Part shown: piece after piece, positions 6,219-8,925 of the stretch
How positions within the stretch are numbered: position 1 is the stretch's first letter
How the letters are laid out: every line of letters starts with the position of its first letter
DNA from: a virus
Lineage: Duplodnaviria > Heunggongvirae > Uroviricota > Caudoviricetes
DNA: 39,640 nt
Direction: 5' to 3' (one strand)
Virus record (IMG/VR): IMGVR_UViG_2563366929_000005
The notes under the pieces: generated by a model
What the model saw: only the letters and a program-made list of their open reading frames with translations
The model's database searches: none
What the model was told of the DNA's origin: nothing
Made by a program: the position numbers and the translations under genes

Positions 6219-6581
6219 TTAATGACCTGCTGCGCGGAGTTTTCCGTCAGGTTCACCGGCAAGAGTCAGTAATTGTCCCTGGTCTTCCTGCAGAATAGTC
6301 AGGCGACCACCGCGATTGACATACATCGGCGTTTCGGTGGTGTCTTCTTCAGAAATTTTCCCGCGGTTAGTCGGGCGAACATATGAGAGTTTGTGTTTGA
6401 TTTTCACACGGTTCTCATCAAACGGTTCGATTTCCAGGTTGAGCGAGACCTTACCTTTGGTTTTCGTGTTCATCACACCGGAAGCGACTTCACTGAGAAC
6501 TGCGCCGATTTTGGTTTCAAATACGCCGCCGTCCAGCTCCCCGATAAATGCCTGCACATCAGTACTGCGTTCGCTAGCCAT
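6219..6581 (-). CDS. Hypothetical early protein, 120 aa (first gene of leftward operon)
   Basis: The long ORF runs to 6767, but AGGAGCAGCAAA-ATG at 6581 gives a strong SD plus start; the upstream extension is Cys/His/Arg-rich and looks non-coding. Confidence 0.6.
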   Translation of the reverse strand: MASERSTDVQAFIGELDGGVFETKIGAVLSEVASGVMNTKTKGKVSLNLEIEPFDENRVKIKHKLSYVRPTNRGKISEEDTTETPMYVNRGGRLTILQEDQGQLLTLAGEPDGKLRAAGH

Positions 6582-6992
6582 TTTGCTGCTCCTCATCATA
6601 TCGACCCTGCAAGGTCGGTTGGTTTCTCCACAAAACAGAGAAGAACACCTGCGGTGGCAGCCGCCCGGATGGATTGGGTTATGAGCCCGTCGTCCGGTGA
6701 TGCTCTTCTCTGTTTTGTAAAAAGAGCGGTACCAGCCGGAAGCAAGTGTACAAACTGGTACCGCCAAAGCAGTGGCTGTTGTGGTGACCGGTGCTGATCT
6801 CCGGCTTGCGGTTATTTCAGACTCTCACGGGCGTTTAATTGCCCCGCCGAACAGCTCTTTTCCGCAATAGCTGCAATGTCTTTCGCGCATCAGCCTGCGC
6901 ATTCACCACAACGCTAAGGATTCTCTCTGGTTGAAAATACTTAGCTGTTATGTGCCTGCTTTTAGCCACATCAGGCGAGGTGGACCTGGTTA

Positions 6993-7052
6993 TTCCCCAA
7001 CAACAAGGATTTGGTTATTATGTAACCCTCCCCAACAACGATAAGGATTTAT
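6993..7052 (+). repeat. Two direct copies of TCCCCAACAAC..AAGGATTT, each ending in an SD-like AAGGA; the first is followed by ATG-TAA
   Basis: TCCCCAACAACAAGGATTTGG (6993-7013) and TCCCCAACAACGATAAGGATTT (7029-7050) read directly; ATGTAA at 7020-7025. Confidence 0.5.
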
Positions 7053-7142
7053 ATGGATCTATGTGTAGATAAGTATGAGGAGAGGCATGTGCCGTTAAGA
7101 CAAAAGCCTCCAGTTCCTCCAAAACCACCCAAGGAAAACTGA
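7053..7142 (+). CDS. Micro-ORF A, 29 aa, proline-rich tail (MDLCVDKYEERHVPLRQKPPVPPKPPKEN)
   Basis: AAGGA 5 nt upstream of ATG 7053; ends 7 nt before the 164-aa gene start; C-terminal PPVPPKPPK. Confidence 0.3.
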   Translation: MDLCVDKYEERHVPLRQKPPVPPKPPKEN

Positions 7143-7149
7143 GACTAAT

Positions 7150-7644
7150 ATGACCAGAGACGATTATAAATTTTATGTTCACTACTCTTATGTATTGGAG
7201 AAGATGAATTACACGTTGTTAACTCGCATTGATAAATTAATAACGTTGATGTTAATCGTTCTCGGTTTTTCAGTTTTCGCCCCGTACAGTAATTTATTTA
7301 TTTTCGGTTTGTTTGTTGCCGTACTTTCGGTTCTTCAGTTGGTCTATCAGTTTGGCCAAGAGGCTGGAATGTCTAAAGAGCAAGCGAGGCATTACAAAAG
7401 ACTGCTGATTGAGTCTGATACCCTTCCTGAAGATCAGTTGCAAGCTAGGTATTTAAAAATCCAAGATACTGATAGTAATCCATGGAAATCACTTGAACGA
7501 GCGGCTTTCATTCGGGCCTGTATTTTTGCTGGTGTTCCAACTAAGTACGATTTAACAACCAAAGAAAAATTTATAGCTTGGTGTGCGGGAGATCTACCTC
7601 TAGAGAATGAACTAACGGATATTAATGATGACCAACAAGCATAA
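7150..7644 (+). CDS. Two-transmembrane membrane protein, 164 aa, unknown function (candidate exclusion/abortive-infection effector)
   Basis: Clean ORF in an AT-rich region; two adjacent hydrophobic helices (LITLMLIVLGFSVFAPY and LFIFGLFVAVLSVLQLVYQF) followed by a charged, about 90-aa soluble tail. Rightward, convergent with cI. Confidence 0.6.
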   Translation: MTRDDYKFYVHYSYVLEKMNYTLLTRIDKLITLMLIVLGFSVFAPYSNLFIFGLFVAVLSVLQLVYQFGQEAGMSKEQARHYKRLLIESDTLPEDQLQARYLKIQDTDSNPWKSLERAAFIRACIFAGVPTKYDLTTKEKFIAWCAGDLPLENELTDINDDQQA

Positions 7645-7699
7645 TCCAGTTCACGGACATGTACCTCCGAAGCCGAAACCACCGAAACCGAAGAAATGA
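7625..7699 (+). CDS. Micro-ORF B, 24 aa, cationic proline-rich (MMTNKHNPVHGHVPPKPKPPKPKK); overlaps the 3' end of the 164-aa gene
   Basis: ATG-ATG at 7625/7628; frame checked codon by codon; weak SD. Confidence 0.2.
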   Translation: MMTNKHNPVHGHVPPKPKPPKPKK

Positions 7700-7718
7700 G
7701 ACATAATAGGATTGGATA

Positions 7719-7787
7719 ATGAGTCGACCAATAGAGCCTTTTCATATTCCACCTCGTCCCAGGCCACCAGATCCAGGCCCAAAGTGA
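7719..7787 (+). CDS. Micro-ORF C, 22 aa, proline-rich (MSRPIEPFHIPPRPRPPDPGPK)
   Basis: AGGA 7 nt upstream of ATG 7719; a weak hairpin (AAGCG...CGCTT plus TTTT, 7811-7834) lies about 25 nt downstream of the stop. Confidence 0.3.
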   Translation: MSRPIEPFHIPPRPRPPDPGPK

Positions 7788-7950
7788 GGGTTACTGATTT
7801 TTAAAGAGCGAAGCGTCCGGTAGGGCGCTTTTTTGGTACTAACGAATCATCCTGGACTTCATATGCCCCAGGCGGCTACTTCGTGGGCGTCCTGCCTGTT
7901 CGTTATCTTTGATATAAAATCTAACTTAACTTAGTTTTAATGGCAAGAGA

Positions 7951-7980
7951 AAACACCAAACTTTTCTTAGTTCGGTGTTT
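7951..7980 (-). terminator. Hairpin terminator downstream of cI (12-bp stem, better paired on the minus strand)
   Basis: AAACACCAAACT-TTTCTT-AGTTCGGTGTTT; on the minus strand the stem has one G-U wobble and is followed by TCTCTT. Confidence 0.45.
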
Positions 7981-8000
7981 TGGTTAGAGAAAAGGGGGGG

Positions 8001-8627
8001 CTAGAGTTCGTATTGAACTCCTTTGACTACACCAATGATGAGGCAATTACCATTGATCGGGATGTTGGGGTACCGGGGATTTAATGGCACTAAAAACTTT
8101 TGAGGGCCATCGATAACTAATTTTTTTACTGTGGCTTCGTTTGTTCCATCAAGTCTAGCGATGACTATTTTTCCATGCCGGGGTTCTGCATCAGGATCTA
8201 CAATCACTGTTGCGCCTTCTGGTATTGTTGGGAGGCCGTTAGGGTTAGTCATGGAGTCGCCTTTAACCTCCAATGCAAATGAGTTATCACCAATCTTTAA
8301 TGATGTATCTACCCACTTGTCTACTTCACTAAACACTTCTGCTGTCCTGCACTCAGTAAACTGCCCAGCCTGAACCCACGAGATTACAGGAACTCTGCGC
8401 ATGTTTGTGACGAGTTTGCCTTCAAACTCCGCACCATAAAGAATGTAATCTATTGACGTATTGAAGAACTTCGCTAATTTTGAAAGTGCTTCCCCACCAG
8501 GGACATTGATGTCTTTCTCCCAGTACCCCACAGCAACGTCACTTACTCCACAAAATTTACCCAATTCTTTCTGGGACGTTCTGGTAACTCTTCTCAGAGC
8601 TTTTATACGCTGACCAACCGTTTCCAT
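8001..8627 (-). CDS. cI: CI-type prophage repressor (N-terminal HTH, C-terminal S24/LexA-like peptidase), 208 aa
   Basis: N-terminal HTH (QKELGKFCGVSDVAVGYWE); C-terminal GDSM (catalytic Ser) and downstream Lys as in the LexA/CI autocleavage domain; divergent from a Cro-like gene. Confidence 0.9.
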   Translation of the reverse strand: METVGQRIKALRRVTRTSQKELGKFCGVSDVAVGYWEKDINVPGGEALSKLAKFFNTSIDYILYGAEFEGKLVTNMRRVPVISWVQAGQFTECRTAEVFSEVDKWVDTSLKIGDNSFALEVKGDSMTNPNGLPTIPEGATVIVDPDAEPRHGKIVIARLDGTNEATVKKLVIDGPQKFLVPLNPRYPNIPINGNCLIIGVVKGVQYEL

Positions 8628-8724
8628 AGGAGCACCATTTCTTTAATTACTAAGTAATCTTAGTTTTTATTGACCTAAGATAGATTGATAATTAACATCT
8701 AATAAAACTTAGTTTGGAGGGCAT
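8628..8724. promoter_or_regulatory. Divergent cI/cro operator-promoter region (OR-like)
   Basis: Perfect 16-bp palindrome ACTAAG-TAAT-CTTAGT at 8649-8664; further half-site-like AACTTAGTT at 8706-8714 (the same 9-mer recurs at 7926-7934); TTGACC at 8670-8675. Confidence 0.5.
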
Positions 8725-8925
8725 ATGACGACTGACGATATCGAAAGCTACTTCGGCAGCATTGAGAAAGTTGCTGCTTTTTTCGGCATAACAACTGAAG
8801 CCGTTTATCAGTGGCGAAACCGTCCTGGCCAGTTAATTCCAAAAGGACGTGCAGCAGAGGCTGCATATAGAACTTGCGGACGGTTGCCATTTAAACCTGA
8901 GCTTTATGAAAAATCTAATGGATAA
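8725..8925 (+). CDS. cro: Cro-like HTH regulator (66 aa)
   Basis: Small ORF divergent from cI, GGAGGG SD; HTH-like segment VAAFFGITTEAVYQWRN. Confidence 0.7.
   Translation: MTTDDIESYFGSIEKVAAFFGITTEAVYQWRNRPGQLIPKGRAAEAAYRTCGRLPFKPELYEKSNG

Follow-up and report, generated by a model that had tools for sequence, protein, structure and literature searches.

Proline-rich micro-ORFs beside a SLATT-like membrane protein gene in a lambdoid prophage: a candidate exclusion or conflict module

SLATT proteins, which are known from prophages, are predicted to act as pore-forming effectors in conflict systems, and how effectors of this type are controlled is an open question (bioRxiv 10.64898/2026.04.29.721553). 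Here we analyze a 39,640-nucleotide stretch of viral DNA (IMG/VR record IMGVR_UViG_2563366929_000005, hereafter the window), a lambdoid prophage of Escherichia coli in which a gene for a two-transmembrane (2TM) protein is accompanied by three short proline-rich open reading frames (ORFs), the micro-ORFs A, B and C. Like SLATT proteins, which have about 150-250 aa, the 2TM protein is small and is predicted to form a two-transmembrane helical hairpin with flanking helices. The locus differs from SLATT systems in that the protein gives no SLATT profile match at the sequence level, and in that no nucleotide-generating enzyme, reverse transcriptase, TIR protein or non-coding RNA lies alongside; proline-rich micro-ORFs are its sole conserved partners.

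The interval between cI and N is a recognized hotspot of mosaic and defense cargo, including rexAB and bstA (PMC8585504). RexAB of lambda and BstA of the Salmonella prophage BTP1 are abortive-infection cargo of this slot, and the module described here occupies the same position by the immunity region. RexB is a membrane channel under the control of a cytoplasmic partner, which is the logic that we propose for the module. However, there is no sequence relationship to either system. Moreover, rexAB and bstA are transcribed with the repressor, from its strand and its promoter, whereas the module is on the opposite strand, past the left operators (OL) and the leftward promoter (pL), with its own leader and terminator, and its partners are 22-29-aa peptides rather than a sensor protein. 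Toxin-antitoxin-like abortive-infection modules are matched here solely in co-encoding and obligate linkage.

The micro-proteins themselves recall other systems. Proline-rich antimicrobial peptides (PrAMPs) such as oncocin, metalnikowin, Bac7 and apidaecin are secreted animal defense peptides that are imported via SbmA. The micro-proteins resemble them in being short, about one-third proline and, in the downstream types, cationic, with P[RK]P repeats and, just upstream of the P[RK]P core, a hydrophobic residue together with a His or an aromatic one. Unlike PrAMPs, their register is shifted by one proline, they have no Arg-Leu C-terminus, and their upstream class is acidic. A different parallel is provided by leader ORFs that depend on elongation factor P (EF-P) or on proline codons, such as mgtP in the Salmonella mgtCBR leader. 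Here too a short ORF dense in consecutive proline codons directly precedes a membrane-protein gene, and its translation would be expected to report EF-P and proline-tRNA supply. Those leaders form alternative RNA structures and their peptides are unconserved beyond the proline codons, whereas no structure of the kind was found in the module, which conserves the whole peptide and has homologous ORFs downstream of the gene as well. The RAPP/RGPP-type arrest peptides ApcA, ApdA and ApdP are also encoded by small ORFs, with Pro-Pro in the C-terminal part, just upstream of the gene that they control (PMC12992588). The likeness lies in a PP-containing small ORF directly upstream of a gene; in contrast to that class, none of 77 micro-proteins contained an RAPP, RGPP or RAPG core or the typical signal or membrane segment. 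We found no description of proline-rich micro-ORFs beside SLATT-like genes, or of the peptide sequences, in the literature library that was searched. We rate the micro-protein type of partner as new, and prophage cargo built around a membrane effector as known.

The micro-ORF module and its conservation

The module extends from about 6991 to 7835 on the plus strand, between pL/OL and the first early-left gene, and is a single self-contained 'moron' operon with four cistrons. Its features are as follows.

6991-7052, plus strand: conserved module-specific 5′ leader, from an alignment of 22 upstream regions
7053-7142, plus strand: micro-ORF A, 29 aa, MDLCVDKYEERHVPLRQKPPVPPKPPKEN; upstream acidic/neutral type, core HVPLRQKPPVPPK
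7150-7644, plus strand: gene for the 164-aa two-transmembrane protein, WP_001513551.1 ('hypothetical'), phrog_6315
7625-7699, plus strand: micro-ORF B, 24 aa, MMTNKHNPVHGHVPPKPKPPKPKK; downstream basic type
7719-7787, plus strand: micro-ORF C, 22 aa, MSRPIEPFHIPPRPRPPDPGPK; downstream basic type
7810-7835, plus strand: intrinsic terminator at the operon end, from a fold of 7770-7845 and reading of the sequence

An earlier note on this DNA, made from the letters alone, had reported the three micro-ORFs, and all three were found at the coordinates and with the translations that it gave. A and C have good Shine-Dalgarno sequences as it had claimed (AAGGA at 7043-7047, 5 nt before the ATG of A, and AGGA 8 nt before the ATG of C); the start of B has only a weak CGGA, together with a tandem ATGATG. 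The same holds for the spacing of 7 nt between A and the 2TM gene (stop codon at 7140-7142, ATG at 7150), for the overlap of B with the 3′ end of the 2TM gene, which comprises the last 20 nt in the +1 frame, and for the AT-rich setting, as the G+C content is 41% for the module (0.41 over 6990-7835) and 50% (0.50) for the window. The earlier note had further argued that such a cluster was unlikely to arise by chance. We scored ATG-initiated ORFs of 10-60 aa as proline-rich when a 12-aa stretch contained at least 5 prolines. Only five of the 409 ORFs in the window qualified, three of which were A, B and C, and across 59 related loci the count was 124 of 382 within the module as opposed to 3 of 2425 outside it. 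A chance origin of the proline-rich ORFs is excluded.

Homologs of the 2TM protein formed 72 clusters, mostly 53-98% identical, which came from Escherichia, Salmonella, Klebsiella, Enterobacter, Citrobacter, Cronobacter, Leclercia, Pectobacterium, Sodalis and Brenneria; through them, 64 IMG/VR loci and 3 genome loci were fetched. Comparisons were made over 54 distinct modules, whose 2TM proteins are 55-70% identical, with one at 32%. Exactly one upstream proline-rich micro-ORF was present in 52 of these modules, its stop codon falling 4-20 nt (mode 8) before the 2TM ATG, and in most loci the TGA of A lies within the GAGGT Shine-Dalgarno sequence of the 2TM gene. Downstream micro-ORFs were present in 53 modules (one in 22, two in 28 and three in 3). 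Lineages differ in the frame that a micro-ORF takes with respect to the 2TM gene, and all three (0, 1 and 2) are represented. Nearly all of the micro-ORFs in this set start with ATG (138 of 139), and 110 of the 139 have a Shine-Dalgarno core. Hence the search in related prophages that the earlier note had proposed found the same arrangement, with the reading frames kept.

For the codon comparison we counted variable sites at codon positions 1, 2 and 3 of the core and calculated the ratio of nonsynonymous to synonymous polymorphism (pN/pS) in the ORF frame and in the two shifted frames. Because a regular expression covering 7-9 core residues served to pick the sets, pN is somewhat lowered in the values below.

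A type: 18 DNA versions; variable sites 8/10/15; pN/pS 0.28; shifted frames 1.3 and 1.6
B type: 10 DNA versions; variable sites 5/2/13; pN/pS 0.17; shifted frames 3.2 and 3.6
C type: 13 DNA versions; variable sites 5/3/15; pN/pS 0.17; shifted frames 1.6 and 3.3
D type: 6 DNA versions; variable sites 5/4/15; pN/pS 0.19; shifted frames 2.1 and 6.0

Third positions were variable at 13-15 of the 14-15 core codons and the peptides were kept. As judged from this codon pattern, the micro-ORFs are under purifying selection at the protein level.

One could instead suppose that the proline-rich ORFs are untranslated by-products of a DNA or RNA element, such as CCN-rich repeats, an antisense gene or a protein-binding site. 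In keeping with this idea, A, B and C are not called by any gene caller or by PGAP, which calls the 164-aa gene alone in the module (as 'hypothetical'), and their exact sequences are absent from a collection of 15 billion proteins. The antisense frame also has a low pN/pS (0.21-0.26). However, A, B and C are missing from annotation because of the length cut-offs of gene callers, since longer variants of 33-71 aa are called as genes, although as 'hypothetical' only. The antisense frame shares its third positions with the sense frame and necessarily mimics its signal. It was open over the core in 91 of 138 cases, had an ATG in 12 and combined an ATG with a Shine-Dalgarno sequence in just 1, whereas the starts of the sense ORFs are nearly always in place. 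Antisense Gly-rich ORFs were rejected as coding units for this lack of starts, and because the antisense frame is rarely open with a start, the sense ORFs are the selected coding units. With nearly every third position varying while the amino acids are kept, and with no Rfam family matching the module, a non-coding artefact is close to refuted by the codon analysis, and we regard the by-product explanation as very improbable.

The leader contains two direct repeats of the form CCCCAACAAC(..)AAGGATT, at 6995-7011 and 7030-7049, the second of which includes the Shine-Dalgarno sequence of ORF A. About 55 nt of it are nearly invariant among the 22 aligned upstream regions, whereas the 2TM proteins are merely 55-70% identical; thus the leader is conserved beyond the genes that follow it. 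It could be a promoter/operator, a ribosome standby site or the binding site of a regulator. A weak candidate promoter can be read within it (−35 TTCCCC at 6993-6998 and −10 TATTAT at 7016-7021, 8 of 12 consensus positions), and a start-stop ATG-TAA at 7020-7025 is particular to this lineage. At the other end of the operon, the terminator consists of a 9-bp G+C-rich stem at 7810-7831 with a 4-nt loop, followed by a U run.

Peptide sequences and linkage to the 2TM gene

All types of micro-protein share a 13-residue core in a single register, H-Φ-P-x-x-x-[RK]-P-P-x-P-P-K (Φ, hydrophobic), exemplified by HMPVRQRPPAPPK in A and HVPPKPRPPAPK in B, and within each locus the upstream and downstream peptides keep the same register. 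On this likeness the three micro-proteins of the window are paralogous. In the upstream type an acidic [DY]YEE[KR] precedes the His, and the tail, too, is usually acidic. Most of these peptides have a net charge of −4 to +3; three variants with a double motif reach +4 to +7. The downstream type, with a net charge of +1 to +6, occurs as the subtypes MSKPxPxIPNH[VA]PP..., MS[RK]PIEPFH[VI]PP[RK]P[RI]PPxPGK and ...EGPRPDS[HQ][VI]PP[KR]PRPxP[RK]P[KR]. Conservation extends to features other than proline, namely the His, the hydrophobic residue, PIEPF, IPN and YEE[KR]. None of the peptides examined contains a hydrophobic segment, and for this reason they should be soluble, cytoplasmic and extended. 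The earlier note had pointed to PP motifs of the EF-P-dependent kind, and these are indeed dense: among 70 unique peptides the mean is 2.2 PP (XPPX motifs) per peptide, with at least one PP in 69 and at least two in 61. P[RK]P[RK]PP occurs in 20 of 77 peptides, and the shorter P[RK]P in 66. In some loci the units are fused to each other, giving ORFs of 53, 71 and 49 aa (L004, L048 and L060, respectively), and in three others (L059, L061 and L062) the upstream ORF is internally duplicated.

Searches that started from the peptides led back to the 2TM gene. A back-translated PIEPFH[VI]PP pattern matched 24 of 2.9 million IMG/VR viral contigs, and the 2TM gene was present in all 24. With the pattern H[VI]PP[KR]P[KR]PPxP, 39 of 41 contig matches lay beside a 2TM homolog, the other two being off-frame chance matches in G+C-rich DNA. 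In the converse direction, a profile search for the 2TM family yielded 213 clusters at 50% identity, nearly all of them single-domain proteins of about 150-180 aa. Eleven distant loci were inspected, comprising the one at 32% identity and ten from the profile search. An upstream small ORF with a His-hydrophobic-Pro motif and/or a proline-rich core was found in ten of them (L069, L074, L076-L081, L127 and L128), two of which also have a downstream ORF. The sole exception, L129, is the most distant of the eleven and has no upstream proline-rich ORF. Taken with the codon pattern, this linkage makes it very probable that the micro-ORFs are genuine genes, that they are translated and that their partnership with the 2TM gene is obligate.

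In Pectobacterium, the 2TM protein continues at its C-terminus, in frame, into a B-type unit (P0013, at 3001-3543 of L071, in several contigs), the protein ending in ...KMAKPPVDGHIPPRPRPPAPPKAQN; the upstream ORF of this locus is a called gene of 33 aa. Two other 2TM proteins, at 622-1191 of L018 and P0002, have lost their stop codon and continue for 22-25 residues through the B region in their own frame, as an acidic, Ser/Thr-rich tail. The B ORF is nonetheless intact in the +1 frame there, as it is in all near-identical copies, L018 included. Because read-through leaves B intact, the 2TM tail past the conserved AGDLP is unconstrained, and the B frame is the one selected in the overlap. A programmed +1 frameshift that would generate a 2TM-B protein was considered and dropped: the 9-codon overlap has no slippery site, and B is mostly separate, with its own Shine-Dalgarno sequence and ATG after the 2TM stop codon.

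A further arrangement was seen at 1107-1223 of a metagenome scaffold (L079). The distant 2TM homolog P0160 (1201-1686) begins inside the 3′ end of a gene for a 1669-aa Type ISP restriction-modification enzyme. The last 25 codons of that gene read MHMPAYPIPQPEQDRGDQSGSQTKK, which is either a nested ORF or an A-like unit that shares the frame of the enzyme, and the 2TM/A-like pair stands in a defense-island setting.

An AlphaFold2 (AF2) model of the 2TM protein (predicted local distance difference test score, pLDDT, 76) is all-helical, with a long hairpin (residues 3-42 and 47-88) and four short helices. The hydrophobic residues 30-67 correspond to two membrane spans with a loop of 2-4 residues. 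Since Lys and Arg occur on both flanks of the hairpin and are absent from the SN loop, both termini are predicted to be cytoplasmic, and residues 68-150 are taken as the cytoplasmic domain. Among its structural matches in BFVD, six of the top seven are SLATT-named proteins (probability 0.72-0.99, with weak E values of 0.075-0.5), and two homologs carry the SLATT name in UniRef; PHROGs returned a family of unknown function only. The neighbors in about 65 loci are phage early genes and repressors, with no signal-producing partner (SMODS cyclase, SLOG, TIR or reverse transcriptase) among them, and the micro-ORFs are the one conserved company of the gene. On the strength of the model we call the protein SLATT-like, and not a demonstrated SLATT member.

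Possible roles of the micro-proteins

Our preferred explanation, to which we give a probability of about 45%, is that the locus is an exclusion or conflict module in which micro-proteins act in trans together with a SLATT-like effector. The peptides would serve as extended polyproline-II ligands of the cytoplasmic part of the 2TM protein, or of a common partner, and would set the activity of the effector, either in the manner of an antitoxin or by gating. Because the core is common to acidic and basic versions, it suggests a common binding site with opposing tails. Two arrangements speak for action in trans: the fusion of a B unit to the 2TM C-terminus, which places the peptide with the cytoplasmic side of the membrane protein, and the downstream copies, for which there is no target in cis. 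For action of the peptides in trans on or with the 2TM protein, taken by itself, we consider the chances even. The module may serve superinfection exclusion or abortive infection, as does other cargo of this slot (rexAB and bstA). Genomic position and effector type make this the probable kind of purpose, while the assignment of the module as an anti-phage or exclusion system is tentative and could well prove wrong. Finally, ORFs of 20-35 codons packed with XPPX would have an output unusually dependent on EF-P and elongation capacity, a dependence that could tie the state of the effector to the health of host translation.

Several observations weigh against this explanation. The conservation of a peptide of 21-29 aa does not, taken alone, separate a free peptide from a nascent chain that acts inside the ribosome. 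The 2TM-B fusion was found in just 1 of 218 family proteins and may be a tolerated accident, and in an AF2 model of the fusion protein the proline-rich tail has a pLDDT of 48-61 with no docking predicted. The SLATT likeness is based on weak structural matches: the Pfam profiles SLATT_1 to SLATT_6 gave no match at E ≤ 10 for 28 close members or at E ≤ 1 for 10 distant members, and Pfam, NCBIfam and PADLOC profiles assigned no meaningful family to the 2TM protein and 37 relatives. To these may be added a plus-strand scan for a consensus sigma-70 promoter, in which none was found, and the way in which the pN/pS sets were picked.

The earlier note had suggested that A is translationally coupled to the 2TM gene and that the peptides are regulatory leaders or trailers. 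In its fullest form, this means cis-acting translational control by functionless peptides: XPPX pauses would occur when EF-P or proline-tRNA is limiting, the pause in A would set 2TM translation, and pauses in B and C would protect the mRNA or modulate termination. The placement of A fits coupling, as its stop codon falls 4-20 nt before the 2TM ATG and mostly within the 2TM Shine-Dalgarno sequence; of all parts of the module, the upstream ORF is retained most widely (10 of the 11 distant loci). A PP is present in all but one of the unique peptides, and 31 of the 70 contain strong EF-P-dependent staller motifs. Stalls in very short ORFs, near the start codon, should amplify EF-P dependence. This much of the suggestion holds; a pure leader or trailer role fits poorly, since the downstream ORFs carry the same 13-residue core and precede a terminator alone. 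The conserved non-proline residues and charge classes are not required for stalling, and the in-frame fusions, whether of a unit to the 2TM protein or of one unit to another, are at odds with peptides that matter only as pauses. The A/2TM junction (7030-7200) is no more structured than shuffled sequence (z = −0.27). Moreover, RAPP/RGPP-type cores, a class reported to be refractory to EF-P, are missing from all 77 peptides, so the pauses should normally be resolved in EF-P-proficient enterobacteria. We consider cis-acting control unlikely, though it accounts well for the position of A.

The likeness to PrAMPs, also raised in the earlier note, applies to B and C, which are cationic and have a P[RK]P[RK]PP core, and it does not extend to the register, the C-terminus or the acidic A type. 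If taken at face value, it would make B and C (and the D type elsewhere) endogenous PrAMP counterparts that bind DnaK or the ribosomal exit tunnel and halt translation. They would be the toxic component of a killing or abortive-infection module, in which the acidic A and/or the 2TM protein provides neutralization, release or a second hit. C reads FHIPPRPRPPDP, which may be set beside the corresponding sequences of oncocin (YLPRPRPPR) and Api137 (YIPRPRPPHPRL). The frequency of P[RK]P, that of P[RK]P[RK]PP as the core of oncocin, metalnikowin and apidaecin-137, and the positive net charge of the downstream peptides all agree with such a role. So do the mutational tolerance and cytoplasmic activity of known PrAMPs: mutational maps show that the PRP prolines are essential, that Arg-to-Lys changes are tolerated or beneficial and that His is tolerated at the aromatic site of oncocin, and PrAMPs produced in the cytoplasm of E. 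coli inhibit the producer (PMC10862732). However, an extra proline separates the His-hydrophobic pair from PRP, such that the two intolerant prolines and the aromatic site are not all alignable, and the change-intolerant Arg-Leu at the apidaecin C-terminus is absent, the C-termini being PGPK, KPKK or KEN. More residues precede the aromatic site than in class I peptides, and the upstream type is acidic or neutral with the same core. A constitutive ribosome poison would also be costly to a lysogen, and the link to a membrane protein, fusion included, would be left unexplained. A PrAMP function is improbable in our judgment. A translation-surveillance immune switch can be envisaged in which polyproline micro-proteins keep a SLATT-like pore closed, with the basic ones perhaps also acting on the ribosome in the manner of PrAMPs. 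The peptides would be made only while EF-P-assisted elongation is intact; when a phage cripples translation or proline decoding, these short, unstructured peptides would run out and the pore would open. We regard this switch as a long shot.

If micro-proteins and a SLATT-like effector do work together as we propose, an unannotated gene family for peptides of 20-35 residues exists in enterobacterial prophages, ranging over E. coli, Salmonella, Klebsiella, Enterobacter, Citrobacter, Cronobacter, Pectobacterium, Sodalis, Serratia and others. To our knowledge, this would be the first case of a SLATT-like membrane effector partnered by micro-proteins alone rather than by an enzyme or a reverse transcriptase. 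The module is about 850 bp and easily cloned, which makes it a compact system for the control of SLATT-type effectors, and it bears on polyproline and EF-P dependence as a regulatory input and on PrAMP-like peptides made by bacteria or phages. It also illustrates that gene callers, through their length cut-offs, leave conserved parts of the cargo of mobile elements out of sight. Should the immune switch prove correct, polyproline micro-ORFs would be a new kind of infection sensor.

Position in the prophage

The module adjoins the immunity region of the prophage, which has the following features.

7915-7972, minus strand: OL operators and pL-like promoter, from a promoter scan (TTGCCA-17-TAGATT, 7946 to 7918)
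8001-8627, minus strand: LexA/S24-type cI repressor gene
8725-8925, plus strand: cro

YfdQ/DUF2303 and further early-left genes are on the minus strand to the left of the module. Operator-like CTAA-N-CTTAG repeats left of cI (7915-7972) match the cI-cro intergenic region (8644-8723). We read the two sets as OL/pL and the right operators, OR, with the leftward promoter-like site overlapped by the former. Transcription from pL would then run antisense through the whole micro-ORF module, with which it is convergent. A hairpin at 7950-7981 has the appearance of a cI terminator.

Phage records have only the flanks in common with the window; phage SfV, for example, shares the backbone up to about 6988 and then carries other cargo. 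The whole module is present at an identity of at least about 99% in 51 of 5426 complete E. coli genomes (about 1%), and the prophages that carry it differ in their repressor. E. coli AR_0013, MS8345 and SCU-482 are among the lysogens with the exact module.

The backbone next to the module has features of its own. A hairpin at 6954-6976, GCCTG-N13-CAGGC, followed by GGTGGA, is kept in phages with different cargo in the slot (e.g. SfV); it lies on the path of the pL transcript and may be a nut- or put-like element or a terminator element of the early-left operon. Beyond it, the first gene past the module downstream of pL is an ORF at 6219-6767 on the minus strand, for which no Pfam match was found. 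The ORF as called mechanically encodes 182 aa from a TTG start; RefSeq has its 120-aa distal part only (6219-6581), as a hypothetical protein. This gene could encode an antiterminator analog. The sequence between these two elements, at 6800-6920, recurs as short segments of 98-100% identity in many unrelated phages. In P1-like phages it falls under the annotation of the lipoprotein gene plp, and it occurs also in Stx phages and mEp460; it resembles a recombination joint that many phages share, at the border of the variable slot.

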